A stretch of 42,403 nt of DNA from a virus (Duplodnaviria; Caudoviricetes), in the IMG/VR virus record IMGVR_UViG_3300046786_000606, positions 1-42,403 of that record; one strand, given 5' to 3'. Numbering within the stretch: position 1 is the first letter of the stretch; every line of letters starts with the position of its first letter. Below are positions 1-42,403 of this stretch, in pieces. Below the pieces are notes generated by a model. The model saw only the letters and a program-made list of their open reading frames with translations, was not told the DNA's origin and ran no database searches. The translations under genes were made by a program, and so were the position numbers.

Positions 1-169
1 GTATAACTTTGTTGAGCTTTTTTTGCGTTTTTGCTGTCCGCAGTTTCGTGGCTCTATTGAGCCATTGACAGCAAATGCGGACAGCAACATGCCGGTCACC
101 GTTGCTGGTCACATATGCCTGTTGTCAAAATATGGCTAACTTTCGTTAAAAGTTATCCACTTTTGTTAT

Positions 170-198
170 TTGACTATCGGTTAGCTATTTGCTAAGCT
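170..198 (+). promoter_or_regulatory. Sigma70-type promoter TTGACT-17-TAAGCT (extended TGn), with DnaA-box-like TTATCCAC at 153-160
   Basis: Direct motif read; identical in copy B. Confidence 0.65.
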
Positions 199-231
199 AG
201 TAAATGAAGCTTACCAATTAACTAAAAAAAC

Positions 232-327
232 ATGATTCAACTTGTATCAGGAGAGGTGATCACAGAGGAAGAATATAAGAAAATTAGGGAAGCGATTAAA
301 AATAATAATCCATTCAAAAATGACTAA
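232..327 (+). CDS. Small hypothetical protein MIQLVSGEVITEEEYKKIREAIKNNNPFKND (not in ORF track)
   Basis: Frame conserved in copy B (38805-38903) with synonymous/conservative changes. Confidence 0.7.
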   Translation: MIQLVSGEVITEEEYKKIREAIKNNNPFKND

Positions 328-907
328 GACACAAGAAATAACAGTGATCGAGCGTGAGTTGAACCCAATGCTTGTAAAGGCAAAGGATTTGAACATACGA
401 GGGGCTAAGGATATGGAGGTTGCCTCAGAGTATCTATCACAGCTCAATATCGCCAAGGATAAGGTCACAGAGCGTATGGAGACTATTACAAAGCCCGCTA
501 AGGAGACCATAAAGGCAGCAGAAGCAATATGGAAGCCATTTGTGAATATGGCAAAGGATGCTATTCAACTCATTCGTGATAAACAGTCTGCTTATCAAAC
601 GGAGTTAGTACGCATAGCTCGTGAGAAAGAAGAGAAGATAGCTGAGCGGGTTGCTAAGGGCAACTTGAAGCTGGATACCGGGATCAAGAAAATCGGTGAG
701 ATTGAGAAGCCTGTTGAGGAAATCTATACCGATAGTGGAAAAGTTTCATTCCGTGAAGACGAGTGTTTCGAAATAGTAGATATTTCAAAGTTACCAGTCA
801 AATATGTTTTACCTAATGAGGTAGCTATCAGGATTGCAATGAAAGCTGGTATAAAAGTCGAAGGTGTACGTTACTTTACTAAAATGATTCCAGTTAACAA
901 GCGATAA
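320..907 (+). CDS. Coiled-coil phage protein (Gam/Gp157-like C-terminus)
   Basis: Helical K/E-rich body, ITKP motif, C-terminal FEIVDISKLP...GIKVEGVRY; homolog at 38893-39477. Confidence 0.55.
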   Translation: MTKTQEITVIERELNPMLVKAKDLNIRGAKDMEVASEYLSQLNIAKDKVTERMETITKPAKETIKAAEAIWKPFVNMAKDAIQLIRDKQSAYQTELVRIAREKEEKIAERVAKGNLKLDTGIKKIGEIEKPVEEIYTDSGKVSFREDECFEIVDISKLPVKYVLPNEVAIRIAMKAGIKVEGVRYFTKMIPVNKR

Positions 908-908
908 C

Positions 909-1028
909 ATGAACAAACAATTTATTGAGGATGCACAAGCGGACTTCTTTATGAAGCGAATGGCTAGACAAGGTATCGTTGCGGGATTGATCGTGACTTT
1001 AGTAGTAGTGGTTATTGTTAATCTATAA
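909..1028 (+). CDS. Small membrane protein MNKQFIEDAQADFFMKRMARQGIVAGLIVTLVVVVIVNL (not in ORF track)
   Basis: Fills gap between genes, C-terminal hydrophobic helix, conserved in copy B (39479-39598). Confidence 0.7.
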   Translation: MNKQFIEDAQADFFMKRMARQGIVAGLIVTLVVVVIVNL

Positions 1029-1032
1029 TTAT

Positions 1033-1527
1033 ATGACAAAAATTTATTATGGTAGAGATTTAATTGGAAGGTTTACCTGTGATGGTAAGAACTACACACG
1101 TTTTCAGTTGTTCCTATTGAAGGTAAAAAGGGCTGTTAAACGAACCATGGTTGCCATGGCGGTGTTTTCGGCAGTAGGATGGGGGATTGTGGCAGGTGCA
1201 ACGTATTTTCCAAGGATAGACATTGTAGAGGCCGAAGTGATCAAGGAGGTTGCTGTAAAAGCTCCTGTAATGGACAAAATTGCTCAGTGTGAGAGTGGTA
1301 ATAGCCATATTGATAAAAAGACTGGTCAGGTGCTGATGAGAGCTAATACGAATAAAACGGTTGATGTCGGGAAGTACCAGATCAATTCTGTGTGGTACAA
1401 AAAGGCTACTGAGCTAGGTTATGATATAACCAAAGAGGCGGATAATGAGAAAATGGCATATTGGTTGTATTATAATAGGGGAACTGGCGATTGGGTTTAT
1501 TCACAAAAATGTTGGGGAAATAAATAA
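1033..1527 (+). CDS. Membrane-anchored lysozyme-like/SLT lytic transglycosylase
   Basis: TM segment then IAQCES (catalytic Glu), DVGKYQIN and W..S..CW motifs; ATG at 1033 preferred. Confidence 0.75.
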   Translation: MTKIYYGRDLIGRFTCDGKNYTRFQLFLLKVKRAVKRTMVAMAVFSAVGWGIVAGATYFPRIDIVEAEVIKEVAVKAPVMDKIAQCESGNSHIDKKTGQVLMRANTNKTVDVGKYQINSVWYKKATELGYDITKEADNEKMAYWLYYNRGTGDWVYSQKCWGNK

Positions 1528-1528
1528 T

Positions 1529-1636
1529 ATGAACACCGTAAAAATAAAGTGGAGTGGTGTGTGGGTAATGGCACTGTTCTTGTTTATGATTGTGCTTATG
1601 TTGAGCGACATTAGTAGTAAGTTAACTTGTAGCTAA
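1529..1636 (+). CDS. Small membrane protein (35 aa)
   Basis: ATG just after preceding stop; hydrophobic; conserved in copy B. Confidence 0.65.
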   Translation: MNTVKIKWSGVWVMALFLFMIVLMLSDISSKLTCS

Positions 1637-1638
1637 TT

Positions 1639-1839
1639 ATGATCATCAACACAAAATTCATTACAGTACAGCAAGCAGGTCGAGCTTGTTTGAAACGTCA
1701 GTTGGAAATAGATGAGGTTAATCTTCCTGATTATCCAAGACCGTTAAAAAAGATTAAAGGTACTCATAAAAATTACTTCCAGACACAGGCAGCTAAATAT
1801 GGATTTGTCATGGCGGTCGTTAGATGTAATTTGCCTTAA
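1639..1839 (+). CDS. Hypothetical protein
   Basis: Conserved in copy B (40226-40426) with many synonymous changes. Confidence 0.8.
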   Translation: MIINTKFITVQQAGRACLKRQLEIDEVNLPDYPRPLKKIKGTHKNYFQTQAAKYGFVMAVVRCNLP

Positions 1840-1864
1840 TAATTATTAGTGATAATATATACAT

Positions 1865-2047
1865 ATGAAAGACATATCTATTGTTCAAAAAATAGTTACA
1901 GTGTTAGTTGTATTGGCTGTGTTAGTGATTGGATTATCAGTGATATTTAAGTCGGAGCCTGTTAAGTATGGACCATTTTATCCTGATCCAACCCCGACTC
2001 CAACATCAGGACCAATGACTGTTTATCCCAATAGTGGAAAAGAATAG
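1865..2047 (+). CDS. Small membrane protein with Pro/Thr-rich tail
   Basis: N-terminal TM helix, PDPTPTPT repeat; in-frame 6-nt indel in copy B. Confidence 0.8.
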   Translation: MKDISIVQKIVTVLVVLAVLVIGLSVIFKSEPVKYGPFYPDPTPTPTSGPMTVYPNSGKE

Positions 2048-2054
2048 TACAATT

Positions 2055-2088
2055 ATCCCCTTGACGGGGGATTTTTGTTTGGTATAAT
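2055..2088 (+). promoter_or_regulatory. Terminator hairpin overlapping promoter TTGACG-16-TATAAT (likely leaderless mRNA for 2095)
   Basis: ATCCCC-TTGACG-GGGGAT followed by T-run; TGG-TATAAT 6 nt before ATG; stem covaries in copy B. Confidence 0.75.
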
Positions 2089-2094
2089 TATTAC

Positions 2095-2895
2095 ATGAGG
2101 GATATCTATTTAACTCCTGATGCTAATAATACAGCATTGGAGACTCCTGATTCTATTGTTCGAGCTACCCCACTTCTTCGTGTAAATTACGATCGGGGTA
2201 TTTTTGCTTATTACGAAGGAGCTGAGTATCCACAAAAAGGAGTTAGTTCTATTGAGGTTATGAAGGCGATCAACATTGTTAAGGCTATTATTGCTGGTGT
2301 ACTAAGTTTTAGATTTACTTTACTGAGTTTACTAATGGCTTTCAATCGAATAGGAAACAAAGTGATCGAACAGTATTTACTCAAGGATGAGTATCGAACA
2401 GCTGGTACGTTAGAATTGGGTAGGATAATGTATGACTTTATTTTTTCATTGACTTCTAATCACACTGTAGCGCTTCATTTTTCTAATATTTGCTCACATT
2501 TGATTGAATATGATAATGCTTATCGTTTGAGACTTCTTGATCTAGGAAGTGAAACGACCAAGGAAAGGCTGTTAAAGAATCCTCGTAAAGAAATGAAAAG
2601 GTTAGTTAAGTTATTGTCTGATCGAGAAGTATTATTGGGAGAGGATGTCGCGCGAAAGTTTAGGACTGCTGTAAATATATTATCGTGGTTATTATTTATT
2701 CCTAAATATAGAAAAGCATTTAAGCATGCTATCCATATGGCCGATTGGGAAAAGATGACATTTGATAATATTGATAAGTATTGGGCGTGCCTAAGGACTG
2801 ATTATGATTTCTTTGGTAAACCTGCTTACCTTCGGATGTTAATGTTGGAAAATGAAGGTTACAGTATTCCTGTTCAAAAAGAAATAAAGATATGA
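2095..2895 (+). CDS. Hypothetical protein (266 aa)
   Basis: Long ORF conserved in copy B; EYDNAYRLR motif; no function recognised. Confidence 0.85.
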   Translation: MRDIYLTPDANNTALETPDSIVRATPLLRVNYDRGIFAYYEGAEYPQKGVSSIEVMKAINIVKAIIAGVLSFRFTLLSLLMAFNRIGNKVIEQYLLKDEYRTAGTLELGRIMYDFIFSLTSNHTVALHFSNICSHLIEYDNAYRLRLLDLGSETTKERLLKNPRKEMKRLVKLLSDREVLLGEDVARKFRTAVNILSWLLFIPKYRKAFKHAIHMADWEKMTFDNIDKYWACLRTDYDFFGKPAYLRMLMLENEGYSIPVQKEIKI

Positions 2896-3293
2896 AAGCA
2901 GAAGAAATAAGAAGTGAATACACTAAAACTTATGATCAAGGGATACTTAATCATGGTGTTCGCGCATGGTTTTATTTACAGAAAGGTTTGAATTTAATAA
3001 ATGAGTTCAAGTATTTAGTGGCTGGTATATTAGCCCTTTACTATACGTTGCAATTTGATTCCTATTGGATCTTAATTGGTATATTTGTTGTTTCTATCCC
3101 GGTGTTGACTTTTATAGGTTGGTTCCATACACATAAGATGTCAAAGGCGATGGAATGGACGGCTATGGTATTTTCTTCTTATTTTGCAAGGTATAATGTA
3201 GATTTGAATGAAAAGACTGCGGATCATACAGAAAAGAATACAAAGTTATTGGAGGCCATATTGCATGAATTACAAAATAAAGGTAAAATATAA
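2892..3293 (+). CDS. Membrane protein with two TM helices
   Basis: ATGA overlap, two hydrophobic segments, conserved in copy B. Confidence 0.8.
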   Translation: MKAEEIRSEYTKTYDQGILNHGVRAWFYLQKGLNLINEFKYLVAGILALYYTLQFDSYWILIGIFVVSIPVLTFIGWFHTHKMSKAMEWTAMVFSSYFARYNVDLNEKTADHTEKNTKLLEAILHELQNKGKI

Positions 3294-3295
3294 CT

Positions 3296-3571
3296 ATGAA
3301 TCCACTTGTTTATAAGATAGTAATGAGTGTCCAGAATCTGAAGACTAAGGATAAAAAGTTTGTCGATATCCTTTCGGTAGATGTCCACTATTGGAAAACT
3401 CCTGAGGATCGAGCGGCTTTTCAAAAGTTTGTTAATGCTGACAAGGCTAAGGAAGCTAGTGAAAAGATTTCCGTAGTTTCTGGACAAATAGCTTTGGATG
3501 CTAATCGAGAGTTCAAAAGACAGGTGAACGCAATTATTGATGAGGTGTTGAGGTTAAAGGAGGGGAAGTAA
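3296..3571 (+). CDS. Hypothetical protein
   Basis: Conserved in copy B (41890-42165). Confidence 0.8.
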   Translation: MNPLVYKIVMSVQNLKTKDKKFVDILSVDVHYWKTPEDRAAFQKFVNADKAKEASEKISVVSGQIALDANREFKRQVNAIIDEVLRLKEGK

Positions 3572-3602
3572 TTGGTTATTTGGTTCTTACCAAATTTTTA
3601 AT

Positions 3603-3917
3603 ATGGGAATATCACCCGAACAAGCACGAATAAATGGGCGTAAGGGTGGCCGTAAGAAAGGCCAGTCGGCTATTACAGCAGAAGCTGGCAAAGCTTTGCT
3701 TATAAAAATGTATCTTGAGAATATCATTCCGATCAATGAGGCATTATTAAAGAAAGCGAGAGAAGGCGATATGCAGGCTATCAAAGAACTACACGATCGT
3801 GTTTACAATAAAGCGGCACAACCTCTTACTGGACCTCAGGGCGGAAACATTGTTTTTGAGTTTATAAAATATAATGACAACCAAAGTAACCTTCCCCCAC
3901 AAGTTCCAACCCCGTAG
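3603..3917 (+). CDS. terS: Terminase small subunit (putative)
   Basis: NGRKGGRKKG N-terminus, KKAREGDMQAIKELHDR helix, directly upstream of and overlapping terL. Confidence 0.75.
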   Translation: MGISPEQARINGRKGGRKKGQSAITAEAGKALLIKMYLENIIPINEALLKKAREGDMQAIKELHDRVYNKAAQPLTGPQGGNIVFEFIKYNDNQSNLPPQVPTP

Positions 3918-9077: not shown

Positions 9078-10178
9078 ATGTCTCAAAGTTTAGCAGCATT
9101 TACACCTATAAAATTTTCATTGAAATTGGTGGAATTGCTATATAATGACGGAATTTATCCTATCATCTCGAACAATAAGTACGAGGGTCAGATAAAGGAC
9201 GCTGGAGATCGTGTTCGTGTTCGTACATCAGCAAAGATTTCTTTGTCTTCATATACAAAGGGTATGACTCTTGTTGCACAAGAATTAAATCCTACAAGCG
9301 AGGATTTGGTTATTGATCAACAGCAATACTTTAAGTTCGTTGTTGATGATGTAGATAAGATCCAGAACGATATCAATGCTATTGCTGAATATGCAGCAAA
9401 TGCAAAGAGAGACATGTCAGAGCTTATCGATACTGATTTGCTCTCATATGGTCGTAAGAATGTGTACTACGCTAACGCGGTTGGTACAAACTACTCAACA
9501 GGTACAGTATCTATTGCTACCACTGGTGTAGTTACTGGTTCTGGTACTACTTTCACGTCTGCTATGGTTGGAGGTATTATCAAACTTGCCGGACTTACAA
9601 AGGGTTACTATGTTAGTGCTTTCACTTCGACAACATCTATAACAGTTGTTGATCAAGGTGGTACTTCATATACAGGGTCAGCTATTACTCCCGGCGCAGG
9701 TGGTTCTGATTATGTGATCTATGCCGCAACTCATAGAGCAACTACAAAGTCTACAATCTACAAGGATTTGGTAGACGTTGATACCGCTCTTACAGCACAG
9801 AAGGTTCCAAGAGGTTCACGCTTCATTGTTCTAAATGCAGCCGCTGAGGGTATCCTTCGTCAGGCTCCAGAGTTTATTCCAGCAGTACAATCTGCCTATA
9901 GTGGCGTTGTAGAGCGTGGAATGATAGGTACTATCGCTGGTCTAAAAGTTGTTTCTTCACAATTGGTTGATGGAAATAATACTACTGGTTGGTGGTTCCT
10001 AGCAGGTGATAAGGACTTCCTATCATTTGCATCTCAGATTATGAAGGTCTCAGTTGTTCCTTCTGAATCTGATCCAACTACCTTCGTTTCTACATGTAAA
10101 GGTTTGTTAGTGTATGGAAGAAAGGTATTCGAGGAAAACAGGAAGCGCGGGGCAGTTTTGAGAAGTGTACTAAGTTAG
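9078..10178 (+). CDS. Major capsid protein (HK97 fold, P22-coat-like) with inserted beta-rich domain
   Basis: YEGQIKDAGDRVRV, LVIDQQQYFKFVVDDVDKIQ, VPRGSRFIV, GMIGTIAGLKV, GLLVYGRKV motifs. Confidence 0.9.
   Translation: MSQSLAAFTPIKFSLKLVELLYNDGIYPIISNNKYEGQIKDAGDRVRVRTSAKISLSSYTKGMTLVAQELNPTSEDLVIDQQQYFKFVVDDVDKIQNDINAIAEYAANAKRDMSELIDTDLLSYGRKNVYYANAVGTNYSTGTVSIATTGVVTGSGTTFTSAMVGGIIKLAGLTKGYYVSAFTSTTSITVVDQGGTSYTGSAITPGAGGSDYVIYAATHRATTKSTIYKDLVDVDTALTAQKVPRGSRFIVLNAAAEGILRQAPEFIPAVQSAYSGVVERGMIGTIAGLKVVSSQLVDGNNTTGWWFLAGDKDFLSFASQIMKVSVVPSESDPTTFVSTCKGLLVYGRKVFEENRKRGAVLRSVLS
9378..9431 (+). repeat. 54-nt capsid segment perfectly duplicated (inverted) at 31006-31059
   Basis: GCTATTGCTGAATATGCAGCAAATGCAAAGAGAGACATGTCAGAGCTTATCGAT equals the reverse complement of 31006-31059, checked base by base. 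Confidence 0.98.
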
Positions 10179-10233: not shown

Positions 10234-10749
10234 ATGACACCAGAAATAAGAAAAAAAATTAGTGATAAATTAAAAGGGCGCAAACCATGGAACGCTGGAC
10301 TTTCTGGTACAAAACCTATTGGTTTAACTTTCAAAGGAAGAAAACATAGTAAAGAGTCTATAGAAAAAACGAGAAATTACTTTCTTGGTAGACCTAAAAC
10401 ACAAGAGCAAAAGAATAAAGTAAGTCTTTTTAAGAAAGGTTCATGGACTGGTGAAAAAAATCCTCAGTGGAAAGGTGGAATAACATCACTTGTTATGCAG
10501 ATTCGAACTTGTTTTCAATATAGACAATGGAGGTCTGATGTTTTTACTAGAGATGAGTTTACATGTAAACACTGTGGTTATAAAAAAGGTAAGAGTCTTA
10601 ATGCTCACCATGTTAAGTCACAATCTTCTATTATTGCTGAAAATAATATTAAAATATTTGAAGACGCCATTAAGTGCGAAGAACTTTGGAACATTAATAA
10701 TGGAATAACATTGTGTAAACAATGTCATATTAATTTACATAAAAAATAA
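10234..10749 (+). CDS. NUMOD3/HNH homing endonuclease
   Basis: GRKHSKES NUMOD3 motif, WKGG, VFTRDEFTCKHC, AHH, NGITLCKQCH. Confidence 0.9.
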   Translation: MTPEIRKKISDKLKGRKPWNAGLSGTKPIGLTFKGRKHSKESIEKTRNYFLGRPKTQEQKNKVSLFKKGSWTGEKNPQWKGGITSLVMQIRTCFQYRQWRSDVFTRDEFTCKHCGYKKGKSLNAHHVKSQSSIIAENNIKIFEDAIKCEELWNINNGITLCKQCHINLHKK

Positions 10750-22083: not shown

Positions 22084-22854
22084 ATGGATAACTCAAAAGA
22101 TAAACAAATGTATCAAATGCTCAATGATGGGTTTAAGAGTATCGCTAAATCGCTCTCAAACGTCTCGATTCCACAAAAAGAATTTATATTTATTGACCCT
22201 ACAAATTTCAAAGGTCCTCCGGGACCTCCGGGGGAAAGTCCATCAGATGAAAAACTGCTTTCGCTAATAAAGCCTCTTATTGAAGATACAGAACCGGGCG
22301 AGCGTGGAGCGCAAGGTGAAAAAGGAGACAAAGGTGATCAAGGTGAGAAGGGAGAACAAGGAGTTAAAGGAGATAAGGGCGAGAAAGGAGACAAGGGAGA
22401 GAAAGGTGATCAAGGGGAGAAGGGGCAAGATGCTGTAATCGATGACAGTGTTGTGGCTAAGGTTAGTCAAGCTATAGATGAGCGTATAAGACCAACAATC
22501 ATTAAACAATTTGGAGGTGGTAATACTCGTCCACTTGATCTGCTTGTAAACGGTGTATCTTACGGCGGTGTAAGAGAAATAAATATCGTAGGTTCTGGGG
22601 TTGCAGGTGAAATCATAAACGGCGTTATGACGGTCACTATTGCCGGTGGTGGTAATGCTATGGTTGACAACGAAGTGGTCTCTGGATCAGGTACCTCATT
22701 TACTTTATCTCAAACGCCTATTGCTGGTACAGAACATCTATTTGCTCTTGGTCAAAGGTTAAAACTGACAACCGATTATTCAATAACTGGTACATCTATT
22801 ACTACAGTCTCCTCGTGGTCAGCAGGAGATTTAACAGCAGATTATCAAATATAA
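22084..22854 (+). CDS. Collagen-repeat virion appendage protein
   Basis: (GEKGDK)n Gly-X-Y repeats at about 22297-22430; C-terminal FTLSQTP...DYSITG domain; TGTTATAAT promoter upstream. Confidence 0.8.
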   Translation: MDNSKDKQMYQMLNDGFKSIAKSLSNVSIPQKEFIFIDPTNFKGPPGPPGESPSDEKLLSLIKPLIEDTEPGERGAQGEKGDKGDQGEKGEQGVKGDKGEKGDKGEKGDQGEKGQDAVIDDSVVAKVSQAIDERIRPTIIKQFGGGNTRPLDLLVNGVSYGGVREINIVGSGVAGEIINGVMTVTIAGGGNAMVDNEVVSGSGTSFTLSQTPIAGTEHLFALGQRLKLTTDYSITGTSITTVSSWSAGDLTADYQI

Positions 22855-29905: not shown

Positions 29906-30092
29906 TATATTTTTTAATAAATTCTCTTGCTTCTTTCTCGCTCTTGAACTTCAATCTTGTGGGCGGAGGCGTGACGATCTGGATCTGTAGCTCGCCGTTC
30001 TTTTCCACATAGAAGGCGTACTGTGTGGGTATCTTCTTGTATACGATAGGGTAGGTCATATTAGTATCTGTTGAAATTATTATCTCGTTCAC
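29892..30092 (-). CDS. Hypothetical protein
   Basis: Operon packing; FKSEKEAREFI motif. Confidence 0.6.
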   Translation of the reverse strand: MNEIIISTDTNMTYPIVYKKIPTQYAFYVEKNGELQIQIVTPPPTRLKFKSEKEAREFIKKYNEQI

Positions 30093-30333
30093 TTTTTGCT
30101 ATTGTAAATGGTAGCTTTGCAGTATCAGGGTTAATTTCCCATCTGATAATTTCTAACAGGTTTTTGACTTGGTACTGCAAAGCATCGTTTTCCTTTTCAA
30201 GTCTATCAAGCTGACTAAAATTTTTAATTTTCTGCTCCTCCTCTAGTTTTGAATATTTTTGATACCACTTTGAAGCCTCGTCTCTAGCCATTTGTAATTC
30301 TTGTTGAAAGTTTTTTATTGTTGATTTTTTCAT
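30061..30333 (-). CDS. Coiled-coil hypothetical protein
   Basis: ORF with AT-rich start. Confidence 0.7.
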   Translation of the reverse strand: MKKSTIKNFQQELQMARDEASKWYQKYSKLEEEQKIKNFSQLDRLEKENDALQYQVKNLLEIIRWEINPDTAKLPFTIAKSERDNNFNRY

Positions 30334-30500
30334 ATAATATTATTTAATTCTAAATGTTCGTAATGTATACCTCGATTAAGTCTCGACAAGACTATATCTT
30401 TCTCACTCCTAAACACGTTCTCTGCTTCACTTTCCTCGTATGGTTCTAACTCACTCTTGGGTTCATCTTCATCCCACTCACGTTCTATATCGTTTGACAT
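30330..30500 (-). CDS. Acidic small protein MSNDIEREWDEDEPKSELEPYEESEAE... (56 aa, not in ORF track)
   Basis: ATG 30500, stop overlaps next ATG (ATGA). Confidence 0.6.
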   Translation of the reverse strand: MSNDIEREWDEDEPKSELEPYEESEAENVFRSEKDIVLSRLNRGIHYEHLELNNII

Positions 30501-30508
30501 ATTGTTTG

Positions 30509-30569
30509 TACCGACTGTCTTCTAATTAACCTAGTCAGAAATTTAGAAGACATGCGGTAAACTAGGTTA
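30509..30569 (-). ncRNA. Predicted pseudoknotted cis-element
   Basis: Stems 30516-25/30543-52 (10 bp), 30509-13/30555-59 (5 bp) and crossing 30527-35/30561-69 (9 bp). Confidence 0.6.
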
Positions 30570-30576
30570 GTAATTT

Positions 30577-30690
30577 TTAATACCCGTTCCCGTACCCGTT
30601 CCCGTTCCCGTACCAGTTCCCGTTCCCGTCCCCGTACCCGTACCCGTAAGTAGATTGACTTTCGTCTCCAATTAGAATAATTTTGACCAT
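30577..30690 (-). CDS. Gly-Tyr/Asn repeat peptide MVKIILIGDESQSTYGYGYGDGNGNWYGNGNGYGNGY (not in ORF track)
   Basis: Manual translation; hexamer GGG(T/A/G)AC repeat; overlaps 3' end of upstream gene. Confidence 0.7.
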   Translation of the reverse strand: MVKIILIGDESQSTYGYGYGDGNGNWYGNGNGYGNGY

Positions 30691-30920
30691 GCTTTTTTGT
30701 CACAATCTATTGTTGCAATGATTGTCAACTCATGGAATGAGACATCGTTAACGTTATCTAATTTTGTTGAAGAAGTCGGACCACCTTCTGCAATTTCCCC
30801 AAGTCCTTTTGTTGTACCCCATGTTCTAATGTTTTTTGAATTTGTTAATGTACAACGTGAGCCAACTTGACTAAATTTTCCAACAAACACCCAGCCTCTT
30901 TGCAAGATTACTATTTTAAT
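30672..30920 (-). CDS. Conserved small phage protein (IKIVILQRGWVFVG...IRTWGTTKGLGEIAEGGP; DUF6948-like), start codon uncertain
   Basis: Recognisable family motif typically followed by GYG-repeat ORF; no in-frame ATG. Confidence 0.65.
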   Translation of the reverse strand: MKIVILQRGWVFVGKFSQVGSRCTLTNSKNIRTWGTTKGLGEIAEGGPTSSTKLDNVNDVSFHELTIIATIDCDKKAWSKLF

Positions 30921-30971
30921 ATCACTACCGTGATTAAAAGTTTCCTCTTAATTTTACTTATTTTAATAATT

Positions 30972-31230
30972 TGAGATTCACTGAAAGGGGTGGGGAGATT
31001 AACGGATCGATAAGCTCTGACATGTCTCTCTTTGCATTTGCTGCATATTCAGCAATAGCTAGGATACTCTTCAACGTTACACCATACCCACTACCTACCT
31101 CCCGAACGTCACATCACCCCTTTTCAATGAACCTCATAAGTAGTCTCACTAACTAGGTAACGTGTAGACGAGTCCTATCGAGAACAAGTATACCGTCCCT
31201 AGTCTGTGTCCTACGAAGCTTGTTTGCTCT
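30972..31230 (-). ncRNA. Putative structured RNA carrying a 54-nt capsid-gene copy
   Basis: Upstream promoter; closing stem 31115-31136/30972-30992 whose two non-Watson-Crick pairs are G-U on the - strand; capsid copy 31006-31059. Confidence 0.7.
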
Positions 31231-31236
31231 GTGATC

Positions 31237-31264
31237 ATTATACTATGTACAAACGGCTAGTCAA
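31237..31264 (-). promoter_or_regulatory. Promoter TTGACT-16-TATAAT
   Basis: Near-consensus hexamers; TTATCCCCAC just upstream. Confidence 0.75.
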
Positions 31265-31281
31265 CAGGTGGTGGGGATAAG

Positions 31282-31375
31282 TGAAAGAGAAGAGGGGATA
31301 TTCAATCATTAAGGGCTATGTTCTAGGGAGCTGATGTCCTAGATACGATTGAGCCTTACCCCCGCTTCCCTTTCA
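31282..31375 (-). ncRNA. Second putative structured RNA
   Basis: Outer stem 31282-31297/31360-31375, inner TCAATC/GATTGA and TCTAGG/CCTAGA. Confidence 0.5.
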
Positions 31376-31396
31376 ATTTATTATAAACGAACTTAA

Positions 31397-31636
31397 CTAT
31401 TCAATTACTACCTCCGCACCATCTTTGAATAATCTATCCCTGTGTATTCCGTATTCAGTATAATCATCTTGTTCAATTGCTTCTGCTTGCTCGTATGCAT
31501 CTTCAAACGTATCACACTCAAGCCCTTGAGCTTTTGGTAAAATATTAACTTCATCCCAACTCTCGGCATTGACGTTTGAGAAGACTAGGTACTTTCCTTT
31601 GTGCTTTTTTATAAGTGTTTGGTTATTGGCTGACAT
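31397..31636 (-). CDS. Hypothetical protein (YTEYGI motif)
   Basis: Acidic ORF with AT-rich start. Confidence 0.7.
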   Translation of the reverse strand: MSANNQTLIKKHKGKYLVFSNVNAESWDEVNILPKAQGLECDTFEDAYEQAEAIEQDDYTEYGIHRDRLFKDGAEVVIE

Positions 31637-31680
31637 TTTATTTATCTATTATCTTAATAAATATCAAAGCGAATAATCTA

Positions 31681-31818
31681 TCAATTAGTTTTTTTAGCAT
31701 TTTTAGATTCCAATGATCGTTTATTCATCAGTTGATAATGTTCCCTAGAATAGGGATGTACCTTTCGTGCTTTCTTACCTAGCTTACTCATGTATTTTGA
31801 TATGTCTTTTTGGTTCAT
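31681..31818 (-). CDS. Small basic protein MNQKDISKYMSKLGKKARKVHPYSREHYQ... (45 aa, not in ORF track)
   Basis: ATGA-coupled to resolvase; KGG-repeat-like; candidate nucleic-acid binder. Confidence 0.6.
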   Translation of the reverse strand: MNQKDISKYMSKLGKKARKVHPYSREHYQLMNKRSLESKNAKKTN

Positions 31819-32213
31819 AGTTCTATTGTTAAGTTACTTATTAAACGTCCTCTTGCTTCACTCAAAGACCTCCGCTTTGATCGCTTACTCTCTAGTTGCC
31901 AAGTCTCGGGGTCGATTAAGACGAAGCAGCGTGGGTACTTTATAACGATAAATGCTGGACAATTCTTAAAAGCAATTGAATCAAATGGTTTCTGTCCATA
32001 ACTAGAATCATCTATCTTATATACTAAACCATTGCCTTTTACAGCTAGTAGCGCATCAATTTGATGATCCTTTACTTCTGCAAATGGTATAGAATTGGAA
32101 CCACGAGAATCTTTGAGTTCGAAAGCACCTGCAAAAAAATCTTTCTTCTTCAAAAAAACATCTTTCATATAATGATTAAATAATGTTTGAAATTTTTGTT
32201 CTCGTTTATTCAT
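31815..32213 (-). CDS. Holliday junction resolvase-like PD-(D/E)XK nuclease (RecU-like)
   Basis: E..FQ, FELK, VKDHQIDAL, KIDD...KPFD motifs (motif order permuted relative to RecU). Confidence 0.6.
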   Translation of the reverse strand: MNKREQKFQTLFNHYMKDVFLKKKDFFAGAFELKDSRGSNSIPFAEVKDHQIDALLAVKGNGLVYKIDDSSYGQKPFDSIAFKNCPAFIVIKYPRCFVLIDPETWQLESKRSKRRSLSEARGRLISNLTIEL

Positions 32214-32869
32214 TGTATTTTTTTCCAACCAAAATTATCTGTTTCTTTATGACACTCCAAGCATAATGTAATCCCATTACTGATCTCAAATCTAAGTTCA
32301 GGATATCTACTAAATTCTTTAATATGATGAGCTTGTAAATATCCACCATTTGTATTACATTTTTGACAAGTGTAGTTATCTCTTTCAAAAACTTTAATCC
32401 TCCATTGCTTATATTCAGATGAGGATCTGATTTTACAATGTAATGGAGTTACCCCTCCACGCCAGAAAGAACTTTTACTACCAGTAAGAGCTAAAGATAT
32501 ACGTTTCTTTTGTTCCGGAGTTCTCTTTTTCCCTATACATTTTTGGTGAGTAATTTTTAATGCTTCATAATTAATTGGTCTTCGTTTAATTATCTCTGAT
32601 TGTCTTTTCCTTTGTTCCGGTGTCCAAGGGATTTTATTACGAGCAATAAGGGCATCAATTACTTTCTTTGTTTTTGGAGGTTGATTCAGAGCAATTTTTC
32701 TTTTTGTTGCTTCACTGTGTTTTTTCCCTAACCATGAAGGCGGCCTATTGCCAATATCACGCTGAGTTTTGCTCATCTTCTTTTTTGTCTCTATTGAATG
32801 GTGACTACCTAAAGGCATTGCCATAATAGAAGTATACATCTTTTGATATCCAAAGTCTAGCATCTTCAT
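32210..32869 (-). CDS. NUMOD3/HNH homing endonuclease (start may be 32824)
   Basis: Repeated HS.ETK.K motifs, WRGG, VFERDNYTCQKC, QAHHIK, YPELRFEISNGITLCLECH. Confidence 0.92.
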   Translation of the reverse strand: MKMLDFGYQKMYTSIMAMPLGSHHSIETKKKMSKTQRDIGNRPPSWLGKKHSEATKRKIALNQPPKTKKVIDALIARNKIPWTPEQRKRQSEIIKRRPINYEALKITHQKCIGKKRTPEQKKRISLALTGSKSSFWRGGVTPLHCKIRSSSEYKQWRIKVFERDNYTCQKCNTNGGYLQAHHIKEFSRYPELRFEISNGITLCLECHKETDNFGWKKIQ

Positions 32870-37367: not shown

Positions 37368-38236
37368 AGGAGATTGTTTGCAATTTTATAATTTTCCATA
37401 ACTAATGCTTTCGCCGTAGCATTAAAGTCACCACCATATTTCAAAGCAGCAAGTAGTGAAAATTTAGTATAACCTTTTTTCTGTTCCAGTTCGGGGAAGA
37501 ATTTAGTGAACGGAAAAAATAGATCGTAACCTTTCCAATTAGTCGAAGCTGATATGCCTTTATTCTTTCCGGGACGCCTCCAAAACTGTGTTGGCGTAGC
37601 TCTACCAACCTTAACCCAACCTAGAGGAATAAGAACCTCTTCCCATGAAGCGAGGGCATTAAATATATCACCAGGACGGCCTTTTTCTGAATGTGGTCTA
37701 GGGATATAAGGAGTGAAGTCAGTTGACTCTTTCTCAGGCTCTAGGTCTTCCAAAACCTTTGCAAGTAGATCATCCGGTAGGTGAGTGATCGGCACATCGT
37801 TTATAATCGTATATTTACCATTTTCAAATGTTGTTGGTGGACAGAACACAAGAGCACCATTGGATTGAACATCAACAAATTTTAGTATTCCACTTTTAGG
37901 TTCTTTTTTATGTTTCGTTGAACTAAGTAATGGATCATATAGAGTATAGAAATGGTAACCTCCGGAAGGCGTGCGAACTTCATAGAGTCCACGATTTTGA
38001 AATGGTGTTGGATCACCACCATATTTAGTATCAACATCAAAGACGACTATATTTGAAATCTCTCCACAGACTATTGCATAGTTTTGGACAGGTGAACGTA
38101 ACCAAGCAGAGATTTCTTTTTCTGTTGGCTTACGAGTTTGAAATGGTTTCCAAACTGTCAATATTTTCTTTTCTCTCGAAGCAGTATTAAAAAAACTGTA
38201 CCCACTTTCAACGTATCTTTTTATAAAATTTTGCAT
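37364..38236 (-). CDS. Bifunctional DNA primase/polymerase (Prim-Pol)
   Basis: WKPFQTRKPT, NYAIVCG, VVFDVD, VRTPSGGYHFY, DVQSNGALVFCPPT. Confidence 0.92.
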   Translation of the reverse strand: MQNFIKRYVESGYSFFNTASREKKILTVWKPFQTRKPTEKEISAWLRSPVQNYAIVCGEISNIVVFDVDTKYGGDPTPFQNRGLYEVRTPSGGYHFYTLYDPLLSSTKHKKEPKSGILKFVDVQSNGALVFCPPTTFENGKYTIINDVPITHLPDDLLAKVLEDLEPEKESTDFTPYIPRPHSEKGRPGDIFNALASWEEVLIPLGWVKVGRATPTQFWRRPGKNKGISASTNWKGYDLFFPFTKFFPELEQKKGYTKFSLLAALKYGGDFNATAKALVMENYKIANNLL

Positions 38237-38268
38237 ATGTTTTTAATTGTTACCGTCATAATGACAAT

Positions 38269-38296
38269 ATTATATACCTACTTGTACACAATGCAA
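38269..38296 (-). promoter_or_regulatory. Promoter TTGCAT-16-TATAAT for replication operon
   Basis: Direct motif read upstream of prim-pol ATG. Confidence 0.55.
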
Positions 38297-38399
38297 ATGT
38301 GTATAACTTATGCTAATATTTAATTAAGCATAATTTTTAATTATGCCGTCAACAGAAATACTCGCTATCTTGGTGTACCAGGTAAGTGGGTATTTTTGT

Positions 38400-38700
38400 T
38401 TTATATGCGGACAGCGACCAGCATGCGGACAGGAAGAAAAATGCTTGCTGTCCGCATTTCTGTCGCTATACAGAGCCATATGACCAGGTGACCATATAAT
38501 TTTAATCTAAAAAAGTTATGTATATAGTTGAACGTGTAGATATCCATATATACTATGTACGACGTACAGATACAGTATAACTTTGTTGAGCTTTTTTTGC
38601 GTTTTTGCTGTCCGCATTTTCGTGGCTCTATTGAGCCATTGACAGCAAATGCGGACAGCAACATGCCGGTCACCGTTGCTGGTCACATATGCCTGTTGTC
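38400..38700. repeat. Iteron-like ATGCGGACAG(C) repeats, putative replication origin
   Basis: Five copies in both orientations (about 38405, 38419, 38448, 38607, 38649), AT-rich spacer, between divergent arms next to prim-pol. Confidence 0.7.
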
Positions 38701-38892
38701 AAAATATGGCTAACTTTCGTTAAAAGTTATCCACTTTTGTTATTTGACTATCGGTTAGCTATTTGCTAAGCTAGTAAACGAAGCTTACCAATTAACTAAA
38801 AAACATGATTCAACTTGTATCAGGCGAGGTGGTCACCAATGAGGAGTACGAGAAAATTAGGGAAGCGATTAAAAATAATAATCCATTCAAAG

Positions 38893-39477
38893 ATGAACAA
38901 TAAAGAACTAGTGCCATTAAAGAAAAAGATTGAGGTAGTCGCGGATAGGGTATCAAAGTTTGAGATTAAAAGTGCAGATGATCTAAAGGAAGCTGTTGTG
39001 GTCTTAAGTGAGATGAATAAGTATGCCGACTCGGTTAAGGAAAAAAAGGAGTTGATTACCAAACCTTTGAATCTAGCGCTTAAGAACGCAAGGGCTATGT
39101 TTGCTCCACTTGAGGAGATATATGAAAGTGCTATCTCTATGCTCCGTGGAAAGATGACACATTATCAAACACAACAGGTAGCTATTAAGAAAGCTGAAGA
39201 GCAGAAGTTAGCTGATCGTGTTACGAAAGGAACTCTCAAGATGGAAACTGCCATGAAGAAGATGGATGCGATTGCCCCGGTTGAGAAAGAGGTGGCTACG
39301 GATAGTGGGCTAGTACAATTCCGTGAGGTTAAAAGATTCGAGGTTGTAGACATTAAGGTTTTACCAATTGAGTATCACATGGCTAATGAGACTATGATCA
39401 CTAAGGCCATGAAGGAAGGGAAAGAGATTATTGGCGTAAGGTACTATGTTGAACAGGTACCAGTTAACTATAGATAA
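38893..39477 (+). CDS. Coiled-coil phage protein, allele B of 320-907
   Basis: Same motifs (ITKP, TDSG.V.FRE, GVRY), strongly diverged. Confidence 0.75.
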   Translation: MNNKELVPLKKKIEVVADRVSKFEIKSADDLKEAVVVLSEMNKYADSVKEKKELITKPLNLALKNARAMFAPLEEIYESAISMLRGKMTHYQTQQVAIKKAEEQKLADRVTKGTLKMETAMKKMDAIAPVEKEVATDSGLVQFREVKRFEVVDIKVLPIEYHMANETMITKAMKEGKEIIGVRYYVEQVPVNYR

Positions 39478-39602
39478 CATGAATAAACAATTTATCGAGG
39501 ATGCACAAGCGGACTTCTTTATGAAGCGAATGGCTAGACAAGGTATCGTTGCGGGATTGATCGTGACTTTAGTAGTAGTGGTTATTGCTAATCTATAATT
39601 AT

Positions 39603-40115
39603 ATGACAAAAATTTATTATGGTCGGGATTTAATTGGAAGGTTCAATTGTGATGGACGTAAGTATTCAAAGTTCCAGTTGTTCCTATTCAAGGCTAAACG
39701 TCTCTTTAAGACCTCATTAAAGGCCATGGCGGTATTTTGTGCAATAGGTTGGGGATTTGTGGCAGGTGGTCATTATTTTGCAAAGACAGACATTGTACGA
39801 GCTGAGGTTATCAAGGAAGTGGGTACCAAGTTTGAGGATATACCCATGCTAGTCAAGATTTGTACCGCAGAATCTGGTGGTAAACAGTTCAAAAAGAATG
39901 GTGATGTTGTAAGGGGTGTAGTTAATCCTTCAGATGTAGGGATATGTCAGATCAACGAGTATATCAATAATGATGAGGCTCGAAGACTTGGTTATGATAT
40001 ATTTACAGAAAAGGGTAACAAGGATTATGCTGTGTATCTATTTATGCACAGAGGTACAGAACCGTGGAATAGTAGTAGAAATGTGTGGTGTAAGGGGTGT
40101 TCTAAATTACAATAA
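39603..40115 (+). CDS. SLT/lysozyme-like protein, allele B
   Basis: ICTAESGG, DVGICQIN, GTEPWNSS. Confidence 0.75.
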   Translation: MTKIYYGRDLIGRFNCDGRKYSKFQLFLFKAKRLFKTSLKAMAVFCAIGWGFVAGGHYFAKTDIVRAEVIKEVGTKFEDIPMLVKICTAESGGKQFKKNGDVVRGVVNPSDVGICQINEYINNDEARRLGYDIFTEKGNKDYAVYLFMHRGTEPWNSSRNVWCKGCSKLQ

Positions 40116-40225
40116 TATGAACACCGTCAAAATAAAGTGGAGTGGTTTATGGGTAATAGCACTGTTCTTGTTTATGATTGTGCTTATGTTGAGCGATATT
40201 AGTAGTAAACTAACTTGTAGCTAAT

Positions 40226-40426
40226 ATGATAATCAACACAAAGTTTGTTACAATACAGCAGGCAGGCATGGCGTGTTTGAAACGTCAATTGGAAATAGAT
40301 GAGGCCAACTTGCCGGATTACGAAAGGCCTTTGAAGAAGATTAAAGGGACACATAAGAATTACTTTCAGACACAGGCGGCTAAACACGGATTTGTCATGG
40401 CGGTAGTTAGATGTAATTTGCCTTAA
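40226..40426 (+). CDS. Hypothetical protein, allele B of 1639-1839
   Basis: Direct similarity. Confidence 0.8.
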   Translation: MIINTKFVTIQQAGMACLKRQLEIDEANLPDYERPLKKIKGTHKNYFQTQAAKHGFVMAVVRCNLP

Positions 40427-40451
40427 TTACTATTAGTGATAATATATACAT

Positions 40452-40640
40452 ATGAAAGACATATCTATTGTTCAAAAATTGATTACGGTATTCGTTCTAT
40501 TGGTCATGTTGGTAATTGGATTGACGGTATTGCTTAAGCCAGAACCTGTTAAGTATGGACCATTTTATCCCGATCCAACTCCTACTCCTACTCCAATGTC
40601 TGGACCAATGCCTGTTTACCCTAATAGTGGAAAAGAATAG
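40452..40640 (+). CDS. Membrane protein with Pro/Thr tail, allele B
   Basis: Direct similarity to 1865-2047. Confidence 0.8.
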   Translation: MKDISIVQKLITVFVLLVMLVIGLTVLLKPEPVKYGPFYPDPTPTPTPMSGPMPVYPNSGKE

Positions 40641-40688
40641 TACAACTAGCCCATTGACTGGGGCTTTTTGTTTGGTATAATATATTTA

Positions 40689-41489
40689 ATGAAAGATATT
40701 TATCTAACTCCTGAGGTTAATAACCCTGTTTTAGAAACTCCTGATTCTATAGTCCGTGTCACACCACTCATTCGTGTAAATTACGATAGGGGTATTTTTG
40801 CTTATTACGAAGGTGCTGAGTATCCTCAGAAAGGAATGACCCCGGTTGAAGTGATGAGATCGATAAATATCGTAAAGGCGATTGTCTCTGGTGTACTAAG
40901 TTTTAGATTTAATCTTTTGAGTTTGTTAATGGCCTTCAATCGAATAGGAAATAAAGCCATTGAACAGTATTTATTGAAAGATGAATACCGAACGGCAGGT
41001 ACATTGGAATTGTGTAGGATAGTATACGACTTTATTTTTTCATTGACCTCTAATGACACTGTAGCGCTTCATTTTTCAAGAATATTCTCACATTTGATTG
41101 AATATGATAATGCTTACAGATTGAGGTTCCTTGATCTAGGGAGTGAAACTACAAAAGAAAAATTGTTAAAGAATCCGAGAAAAGAAATGAAAAGATTGGT
41201 TAAGTTATTGACTGAGCGTGAGGTCTTCTTGGGAAAAGATGTGAGTGATAAATTTAATAAGGTTGTATCAATATTGTCTTGGCTATTATTTATTCCTAAA
41301 TATAGAAAAGCATTTAAGTATGCTATCCATATGGCCGATTGGGAAAAGATGACATTTGATAACACTGACCGATATTGGGCGTGTCTCCGGACTGATTATG
41401 ATTTCTTTGGATTATCATATGATGAAAGAATGAAGATGATAAAAGATAATGGGTATAGTATCCCTGTTCAAAAAGAAATAAAGATATGA
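40689..41489 (+). CDS. Hypothetical protein, allele B of 2095-2895
   Basis: Direct similarity; ATG 40689 follows TATAAT. Confidence 0.85.
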   Translation: MKDIYLTPEVNNPVLETPDSIVRVTPLIRVNYDRGIFAYYEGAEYPQKGMTPVEVMRSINIVKAIVSGVLSFRFNLLSLLMAFNRIGNKAIEQYLLKDEYRTAGTLELCRIVYDFIFSLTSNDTVALHFSRIFSHLIEYDNAYRLRFLDLGSETTKEKLLKNPRKEMKRLVKLLTEREVFLGKDVSDKFNKVVSILSWLLFIPKYRKAFKYAIHMADWEKMTFDNTDRYWACLRTDYDFFGLSYDERMKMIKDNGYSIPVQKEIKI

Positions 41490-41887
41490 ATACTGAAGAG
41501 ATAAGAAATGAATACACAAAGCGGTATGATAAAGGTTTTCTTAACCATGGTGTTCGTGCATGGTTTTATTTACAGAAAGGTTTGAATTTAATAAATGAGT
41601 TCAAGTATTTGGTGGCTGGTATATTGGCTCTTTACTACACTTTGAAATTAGATTCTTTTTGGTTTCTTATTGCTATATTTGCTGTCTCTATCCCTGTGTT
41701 GACATTCATAGGTTGGTTCCACACGCATAAGATGTCAAAGGCGATGGAGTGGACGGCTATGGTATTTTCGTCATATTTTGCAAGGTATAATGTGGATTTG
41801 AATGAAAAGACTGCGGATCATACTGCAAAGAACACTAAATTGTTGGAGGCCATATTGCAAGAATTACAAAATAAAGGTAAAATATAA
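41486..41887 (+). CDS. Membrane protein, allele B of 2892-3293
   Basis: Direct similarity. Confidence 0.8.
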   Translation: MNTEEIRNEYTKRYDKGFLNHGVRAWFYLQKGLNLINEFKYLVAGILALYYTLKLDSFWFLIAIFAVSIPVLTFIGWFHTHKMSKAMEWTAMVFSSYFARYNVDLNEKTADHTAKNTKLLEAILQELQNKGKI

Positions 41888-41889
41888 CT

Positions 41890-42165
41890 ATGAATCCACT
41901 TGTTTATAAGATAGTAATGAGTGTCCAGAATTTGAAGACTAAAGATAAAAAGTTTGTCGATATTCTTTCGGTCGATATCCACTATTGGAAAACTTCTGAA
42001 GATCGAAAAGCTTTTCAACAGTTTGTTAATGATGATAATGCTAAGGAAGCTAGTGAAAAGATTTCTGTAGTTTCTGGACAAATAGCTTTTGATGCTAATT
42101 TAGAGTTCAAAAGACAGGTGAACGCAATTATTGATGAAGCGTTGAGGTTGAAAGAGGGGAAGTAA
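41890..42165 (+). CDS. Hypothetical protein, allele B of 3296-3571
   Basis: Direct similarity. Confidence 0.8.
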   Translation: MNPLVYKIVMSVQNLKTKDKKFVDILSVDIHYWKTSEDRKAFQQFVNDDNAKEASEKISVVSGQIAFDANLEFKRQVNAIIDEALRLKEGK

Positions 42166-42192
42166 TTGGTTATTTGGTTTTAGTCCAATTTT

Positions 42193-42403
42193 ATGGCAGC
42201 ATCACCAGAACAAGCAAGAATAAATGGTAGAAAAGGTGGCAGACCAAAAGCTGCTCATACTATTACAGCTGAAGCGGGCAAAGCTTTGCTTATAAAAATG
42301 TATCTTGAGAATATCATTCCGATCAATGAGGCATTATTAAAGAAAGCGAGAGAAGGCGATATGCAGGCTATCAAAGAACTACACGATCGTGTTTACAATA
42401 AAG
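42193..42403 (+). CDS. terS: Terminase small subunit, allele B, truncated by window end
   Basis: MAASPEQARINGRKGGRPKAAHTITAEAGK..., merges into sequence identical to copy A. Confidence 0.75.
   Translation, partial: MAASPEQARINGRKGGRPKAAHTITAEAGKALLIKMYLENIIPINEALLKKAREGDMQAIKELHDRVYNK

Follow-up and report, generated by a model that had tools for sequence, protein, structure and literature searches.

Here we describe a structured locus in the early region of an uncultured freshwater tailed virus (Duplodnaviria; Caudoviricetes) known from the IMG/VR virus record IMGVR_UViG_3300046786_000606, whose complete length of 42,403 nt (GC 38.6%) is referred to below as the window. On the minus strand, between a predicted early promoter and a DUF6948 gene, a long hairpin cassette holds an exact 54-nt copy of part of the phage's own major head protein gene. 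We propose, with about even confidence, that the hairpin is a palindromic cassette which changes rapidly within the leader of an early mRNA, that the capsid DNA within it is a recently gained passenger patch, and that a capsid-related function is unlikely. On the evidence, such a patch within a hypervariable hairpin is more probable than an RNA device directed at the capsid. An earlier reading made from the letters alone (the original prediction) had described a promoter-led RNA in which a structured scaffold displays capsid sequence as its cargo, and that reading is partly supported overall. The features on which the argument turns are the following.

30972-31136, minus strand: inserted long hairpin cassette, 165 nt; its outer 12-15 bp are common to relatives and its interior is variable.
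31115-31136, minus strand: 5′ arm of the closing stem in the minus-strand reading; 31122-31167 is unchanged in a contig of sequencing run X8.
30972-30992, minus strand: 3′ arm of the closing stem in the same reading; 30962-30984 has no differences in X8, and 30962-30985 has one in run X4.
31006-31059, minus strand: capsid copy, an exact 54-nt match to codons 101-118 of the major head gene, sense on the minus strand.
9378-9431, plus strand: donor segment, inside the major head gene.
9078-10178, plus strand: major head protein gene, 366 aa, P22-coat-like (phrog_267, E 4.6e-32; distant tblastn matches to coat proteins at ≤35% identity).
31237-31264, minus strand: predicted sigma-70-type early promoter, TTGACT-16-TATAAT, with a score of 11/12, the best site in 30000-32500.
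31137-31232, minus strand: conserved leader hairpin domain of ~95 nt, downstream of the promoter and kept in the related locus L011.
30672-30949, minus strand: DUF6948 gene that has lost its 5′ end (Pfam DUF6948, E 8.8e-8); the first canonical start is a TTG at 30905, giving 77 aa.

The capsid copy is exact and sharply bounded, as had been claimed. Self-BLAST aligned 31006-31059 with the reverse complement of 9378-9431 at 54 of 54 positions (E 4e-23 within the 42.4-kb record), and we agree with the original prediction that such a match is not chance. It is the sole significant self-match of the 491-nt intergenic region, the runners-up reaching no more than 16 nt, and a seeming extension to 61 nt proved to be noise, with only 4 of the 7 added positions in agreement. 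Both ends fall on codon boundaries, from the first base of codon 101 to the last base of codon 118, an alignment that would arise by chance about 1 time in 9. The remainder of the interior has no match in the phage's own genome and nothing significant in isolated phages. The 491-nt region found no match among isolated phages by blastn, and the hairpin alone gave only chance matches at E 0.6 to Propionibacterium/Cutibacterium phage genes, mostly annotated as major tail protein among the matches listed. Folding models suggest that the capsid piece is structurally neutral in its surroundings: when random genomic 54-mers were placed at the position of the copy, 23% of 300 folded at least as well, and the substituted folds averaged -58.0 (sd 4.1) against -60.8 for the actual capsid piece.

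An exact self-match of this kind could arise during assembly, a concern that the original prediction had raised and that read-derived contigs answer. Sequencing runs listed for the window number 22, two of which (X1 and X2) hold most of it; these two are of the same size and are probably one data set, perhaps the source sample. No RNA run was among those listed for the locus. Contigs built from the runs at k=31, and independent of the IMG assembly, cross both ends of the copy. One X1 contig covers 30474-31035 at a depth of 34.3 and another covers 31030-31150 at a depth of 50.5, neither differing from the window, and both extend 30 nt into the 54-mer, the maximum at k=31; the contig of the shared 54-mer has a depth of 131.2, near the sum of the depths of its locus and capsid contexts (94.9 and 69.7). 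Because the junction contigs stand at full depth, both copy junctions must be borne by many reads, and the capsid copy is not an assembly artifact. Contigs of k=31 cannot phase the two junctions onto one molecule; the two flanks of the copy are each other's hairpin arms, and they are likewise adjacent in the contig of a relative (X8). The capsid-bearing allele occurs in X1/X2 only, no second independent sample having shown it. The identical 54-mer with capsid flanks is also present in run X3, from another study, where the hairpin flanks are without cover.

Comparison with related loci shows the hairpin to be an insertion. L011, the nearest relative in the collections searched (its DUF6948 protein is 84% identical), has no hairpin: its leader is followed by 21 nt and then by the ATG of a 110-aa DUF6948 gene, and at the place of the hairpin it has 78 nt, this ATG included. 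A depth-4 X1 contig, from a minor strain, is also empty, passing from the end of the leader through an AT-rich spacer into ATGACAAAAA. Homology to the empty alleles restarts directly after the hairpin at TATTAAA, and TTAT flanks the hairpin at both borders, shifted by one T relative to both empty alleles and set in AT-rich DNA.

Where the hairpin is present, its base appears constant and its interior does not. The contig of X8, a run of another study, extends for 6.7 kb and reads, in window coordinates, 30715-30947, 71 other letters, 30962-30984, 97 other letters, and 31122-31282, with 10 differences in the first of the shared blocks, none in the second, and 10 plus 13 gap letters in the third. 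Its interior of 97 letters, which begins GGAGCC after 30984, stands in place of the 137 of the window. A 3.0-kb contig of X4, from a third study, has the same flank and left arm, diverges after 30985 and continues TAGTGT; the comparison with X4 covers the left arm only, and the foreign interiors are known from the first 30 letters of each. A depth-9.5 X1 contig also joins 30984 to 31121. Three different interiors, those of the window, X8 and X4, are found at one site at a flank identity of ~95%, and as judged from these alignments the outer 12-15 bp of the stem are constant and everything inside has been replaced. With up to 3 mismatches allowed, the window genome contains neither the first 30 nt of the X8 interior nor those of the X4 interior, and the 26- and 30-letter loose ends of minor X1 contigs were found neither in the window nor in the related loci retrieved. 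The original prediction had offered recent capture or nucleotide-level selection as the cause of the perfect match; relatives whose flanks are ~95% identical lack the copy, which implies recent capture, and selection is unneeded if the event was recent.

Upstream of the cassette, the promoter and leader are shared with relatives. The scan that returned the predicted promoter found 7 promoter-like sites where shuffled sequences gave 8.8, and for that reason the pattern alone proves nothing; the near-consensus promoter of the original prediction has a position that is kept in L011, where a promoter-like TTGCAT-16-TATATT lies at the same distance from a conserved CAGAGCA as in the window. The X8 contig retains the promoter with a single change in the spacer, at 31248. 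Window positions 31242-31138 and L011 positions 2777-2880 are 75% identical, and their upstream flanks differ. The consensus fold of the two leaders has 27 pairs, 2 with compensatory changes, and a covariance model of the leader finds the window and L011 only, among 21 sources. The apical leader hairpin is nearly identical between the window and L011, though L011 is more distant than X8; within it, at 31168-31190, the X8 contig has 13 inserted letters and several substitutions. No terminator-like site was found at the locus on either strand, no T-run follows the stem, and the only nearby plus-strand promoter-like site scores 9/12. The promoter-leader-DUF6948 block, on these alignments, appears as a conserved island amid variable flanks. 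The X8 relative swaps 31283-31625, which holds a 79-aa gene upstream of the promoter, for 176 other letters, its promoter, leader and arms staying in place; a search of IMG/VR found no relative of the 79-aa protein.

The predicted structure of the locus favors the minus strand, in agreement with the promoter-led, minus-strand-biased structured region that had been described. The 21-bp closing stem has one bulged A and two transitions that become G-U pairs on the minus strand, exactly as claimed. The 301-nt region folds with a z score of -5.2 on the minus strand versus -2.0 on the plus strand, and the minimum free energy of the hairpin alone is -61.6 versus -45.4 kcal/mol, with 10 versus 3 G-U pairs. 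Rfam searches of the window, the locus and three relatives returned nothing at the gathering score, and ARAGORN found no tRNA or tmRNA in the window and five loci.

On its other side the cassette adjoins a damaged gene. Of 17 related loci, 16 have a DUF6948 open reading frame (ORF) of 107-135 aa and the other has one of 86 aa; in the window the ORF measures 77 aa, which cuts into the Pfam domain, and an in-frame remnant, EETFNHGSDIKIVI, lies upstream of the TTG and is closed by stop codons. At 30948-30961 the window has 14 letters versus 71 in X8 and X4. The DUF6948 substitutions in X8/X4 number 9, of which 7 are synonymous, among them the two located upstream of the window's TTG; in X8 and X4 this upstream part of the frame is still under purifying selection. 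Because X8 and X4 have 71 letters for 14, with a synonymous bias upstream, the window allele has lost ~57 nt including the DUF6948 start codon. An insertion beside a gene-truncating deletion looks like a hyperplastic spot, not a tuned device.

These observations can be accommodated in a simple scheme. The promoter would drive an early operon whose leader holds the conserved hairpin, and behind this hairpin the palindromic cassette would have been inserted in one lineage, its helix base being kept thereafter. Transcription from the promoter would include the cassette in the early mRNA, where any effect it has may depend on the double-stranded base, acting for example in RNase III-type processing or as a stability element; this is a guess that would explain why the base alone is conserved. 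Long DNA palindromes are prone to breakage. The interior may turn over by breakage and repair, or by allele exchange, and copying or ligation at a break in the hairpin may have brought in the 54-bp piece from replicating phage DNA, which is abundant; recent uptake would account for the perfect 54/54 identity. Capture was perhaps helped by breaks from two HNH endonucleases, 0.8 and 1.1 kb from the donor and the acceptor.

10234-10749, plus strand: NUMOD3-HNH homing-type endonuclease (Pfam/PHROG), which directly follows the major head gene and begins 803 nt beyond the donor segment.
32210-32869, minus strand: second NUMOD3-HNH endonuclease (Pfam/PHROG), in the early arm, 1074 nt from the hairpin.

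The two enzymes are paralogues (35% identity, E 8e-25). We regard their link to the capture as a lead, in which both places are plausible break sites in a mixed-strain population.

Several points weigh against a passenger patch in a drifting hairpin. The repair mechanism is one that we infer throughout, and no microhomology is visible at the copy junctions. The copy lies off the hairpin tip, in the 3′ arm, where it is flanked by an apical sub-hairpin on one side and an inner stem on the other; its ends are codon-aligned, it is sense to the predicted transcript, and it leaves a 38-aa frame open. At least three unrelated interiors at ~95% flank identity represent faster turnover than simple decay predicts, and this rapid turnover could reflect a dedicated exchange process. 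With 30 letters of each interior known, the cargo in X8 and X4 may yet be self-derived. The minus-strand G-U bias of the modeled fold suggests a selected RNA, and on the same grounds the complete hairpin probably has a function of some kind.

Long intergenic hairpins recur in the early regions of two further related loci, L005 and L006, with arms of 20-29 nt and interiors of 48-149 nt.

L006 9570-9750, 8255-8455 and 140-246; L005 7505-7636, 8383-8510 and 8512-8610: long hairpins of relatives, with branched interiors and z scores of -4 to -9.

Counting that of the window, 6 of 7 long hairpins fold better on the gene-sense strand. None of the 5 L005/L006 hairpins tested matches elsewhere in its own record, the hits being only their own arms and matches of ≤17 nt. 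Alignment of the window locus with the structured intergenic region of L005 gave no convincing homology. For the capsid protein, the L011 and L005 records gave no clear match, and the L006 and L007 records gave marginal ones only, over 78 residues at E ~3e-4; the window phage and L005, L006, L007 and L011 share a replication module and not a head module, and relatives that have no head module in common with the window cannot be used to judge whether cargo tracks each phage's own capsid. One L006 hairpin interior has a tRNA T-arm-like stem-loop, GGUUCAAUUCC (CUAGG-UUCAAUU-CCUAG), with no Rfam or ARAGORN match.

These hairpins bear on the explanation closest to the original prediction, a functional RNA in which a constant stem carries an exchangeable insert, here a capsid-sense decoy or sponge for a host RNA-guided or RNA-cleaving defense, or else a guide or donor. 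We consider it unlikely. The scaffold half of that claim stood: the outer stem is constant around interiors that differ across three relatives, promoter and leader are both conserved, the minus strand folds better and has 10 G-U pairs, and the copy is codon-aligned, sense and identical at 54 of 54 positions. The cargo half did not, inasmuch as self-matches are lacking in all five tested hairpins of L005/L006 and the starts of the X8 and X4 interiors are not in the window genome. The allele is confined to one sample, the 54-mer fits its scaffold no better than chance, and next to the cassette lies a deletion by which a conserved gene has been shortened. The central 24-mer of the copy, required to match exactly, was not found in 185,579 species genomes, though a search of this kind tests weakly for spacers. 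Early display of a late-gene target would trigger type III CRISPR immunity sooner, and would not blunt it. A CRISPR mini-array or target decoy was rejected on the same weak test and on the arrangement of the flanking repeats, which are inverted and not direct. More improbable is the broader version in which phages load snippets into an abundant base made early in infection and the capsid copy of this strain soaks up an RNA defense.

A mobile element of the MITE type (miniature inverted-repeat transposable element), in which a non-autonomous transposon with terminal inverted repeats of ~21 bp is moved by a host or phage transposase and the capsid fragment was carried along or acquired later, is about as doubtful as the scaffold with its cargo. 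Such elements, among them MITEs, Correia, REP/BIME and RPE, have terminal inverted repeats and lengths of 100-200 nt, occur as empty and filled alleles, and insert in AT-rich intergenic DNA. The window hairpin resembles them in its 21-bp closing repeat, its empty alleles (L011 and the minor X1 contig) and its AT-rich spacer, and TTAT on both borders could be a target-site duplication; against this, TTAT is off by one T relative to both empty alleles, a weak signal in AT-rich DNA. It differs in that unrelated interiors occupy one site, which would need repeated site-specific insertion, and in that no other copies were found. The record holds no second copy of the promoter, leader or arms, no transposase by Pfam scan, and the arms show no excess depth in X1. 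The motif scans of metagenomes, IMG/VR and species genomes need exact matches, in collections from which near-identical records may be missing, and are weak negatives; within that scope, the 54-mer and the inner repeat pattern had no matches in IMG/VR, the right-arm 22-mer had none in JGI metagenomes or IMG/VR, both arms with a gap of 80-140 nt had none in IMG/VR or in species genomes (the host being not identified), and a conserved DUF6948 25-mer had none in JGI metagenomes and was found in IMG/VR only in the contig of L011.

Two further functions for the copy seem very improbable to us. In the first, a plus-strand RNA over 31006-59, arising for instance by late read-through, would down-tune capsid synthesis as an antisense regulator; in its plus-strand form the copy can pair with capsid mRNA along its whole length, and the late arm runs toward the early one, the two meeting near 28.6 kb. 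The nearby plus-strand promoter-like site, at 9/12, and the plus-strand fold, at z -2.0, are weak, the allele is strain-specific, and a phage would gain little by silencing its own capsid gene. A P1 c4 / P4 CI-type antisense RNA was likewise rejected: the Rfam c4-a1b1 model covers just an 18-nt hairpin and reaches 13.3 bits (E 1.4), its gathering score being 46.7. In the second, the 54-bp inverted repeat is a recombination substrate by which a phage exonuclease and annealase could invert the 21.6-kb segment, giving genome isomers, one of which would set capsid codons 119 onward behind the early promoter. A length of 54 bp is within the range used by phage annealases, contigs of k=31 cannot tell the isomers apart, and the early arm has a PD-(D/E)XK nuclease whose adjacent 227-aa ORF could be the annealase partner. 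Such an inversion would split the capsid gene, whereas the assembled order keeps the capsid intact and the hairpin arms adjacent, as in X8; no isomer was seen, and inversion would be a side effect rather than a purpose.

Least likely of all is an assembly or library chimera, or a translated capsid-derived peptide. For a chimera one may cite that 54 equals k-1 for assemblers working at k=55 and that the record is strain-chimeric at its ends, and against it that both junctions occur in independent k=31 contigs at the depth of unique flanks; for a peptide there is an open frame, which was examined and set aside.

30958-31074, minus strand: 38-aa ORF with a TTG start, which reads the capsid frame.

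This ORF is not a gene, having no Shine-Dalgarno match upstream, a start inside the paired region and no PHROG match, and by our estimate ~38% of random contexts would leave such a frame open. A 61-aa plus-strand ORF over the hairpin was dropped for want of a ribosome-binding match.

The passenger patch in a hypervariable leader hairpin has partial counterparts among known systems. Closest in setting are the PeSL cassettes of T4-type phages, in which a strong sigma-70-like early promoter and a stem-loop lie in a plastic early region, closely related phages differ there by insertion, deletion and replacement, and the PeSLs are short, occur as many dispersed, shuffling-promoting copies per genome and have stem-loops that are intrinsic terminators (Arbiol et al. 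2010, PMC2839356). The window locus is alike in its 11/12 promoter match followed by a leader hairpin and a long hairpin, and in its local plasticity; it differs in that the cassette is single-copy, 165 nt long and devoid of a U-tract or terminator, with variation inside the hairpin and not between flanking cassettes. RNase III processing hairpins in the early transcripts of T7 and lambda are long stems between a promoter-proximal leader and the early genes, and it is the helix, rather than the apical sequence, that matters for what they do. The long duplex predicted between leader and early genes in the window is similar, as far as its predicted fold goes; it is much longer and absent from close relatives, and so is not an essential processing site.

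As for the capture itself, the best parallel is filler-DNA break repair, such as the capture of nuclear mitochondrial DNA (NUMT; PMC2567098), which is known mainly from eukaryotes. Like filler DNA, the copy is short and exact, derives from DNA that is plentiful inside the cell, and sits at a site unrelated to its source, with junctions that are blunt and an orientation that is arbitrary; the differences are that the literature search found no phage example and that no end-joining genes were seen in the window phage. Nothing relevant emerged from literature searches on antisense or capsid regulators of phages, nor from those on templated insertions in phages.

The likeness to retrons suggested in the original prediction did not survive. 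Inverted repeats do close a structured noncoding region behind a promoter, but they close one hairpin and do not appear to bracket an msr and msd, the conserved leader lies outside them, none of the 47 ORFs covering the record matches a reverse transcriptase family in Pfam, and no Rfam family is reached at the gathering score. A diversity-generating retroelement with its pair of template and variable repeats was rejected on the lack of a reverse transcriptase and on the two 54-nt copies being identical and inverted. Also rejected were an integron attC site (no core-site motifs by eye and no integrase) and N4-type hairpin promoters (no giant virion RNA polymerase).

The window itself is best read as a composite. 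Its start, 1-3813, resembles its end, 38575-42403, at 75-99% identity block by block in self-BLAST. The assembly wrapped once around a genome of ~38.6 kb and then ran into a second strain, so the record is strain-chimeric and not terminally redundant. Late genes lie on the plus strand (terminase, P22-coat-type major head protein, SU10-type adaptor, collagen-like fiber, amidase), and early and replication genes lie on the minus strand from ~38.5 to 28.7 kb (D5-type primase-helicase, PD-(D/E)XK nuclease, SNF2-like helicase, HNH endonuclease), the two arms meeting near 28.6 kb. The PD-(D/E)XK nuclease gene adjoins the 227-aa ORF, which has no annotated family match. Isolated phages are only distant kin, with capsid identities of ≤35% in tblastn matches to coat proteins.

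Other repeats occur in the record and its relatives. A 9-nt periodic collagen-like (G-X-Y) repeat at 22297-22442 lies inside a 256-aa protein of the late structural region (Pfam Collagen, E 2.7e-9) that is likely a tail fiber. Upstream of the early arm are a hairpin with 24-nt arms (38413-38467), a 20-nt inverted repeat with halves 176 nt apart (38188-38403), and copies of a 35-nt motif starting TTGCTGTCCGCA, which occurs three times (region 38188-38479; 31-65; 38605-38639); together these are possibly operators or an origin. Some small early ORFs are made of simple repeats, of the RERERV type at 30485-30703 on the minus strand and of GYGDG and AM repeats at L006 7425-7761, and 30586-30650 draws many unrelated metagenome contigs at high depth.

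If the passenger patch in a fast-changing leader hairpin is the correct reading, the locus would be a clean natural example of how the early region of a phage changes: a cassette enters a leader, its interior outpaces its surroundings and takes up the phage's own DNA, and the neighboring gene is damaged. It would help in reading phage mosaicism, and it cautions against inferring function from every exact self-match. The early operons of this phage group repeatedly contain long hairpins whose base is constant and whose interior is free, and these matched no RNA family; the class is uncatalogued and merits modest follow-up. If their interiors are loaded, and not drifting, they would represent a new kind of phage RNA device.

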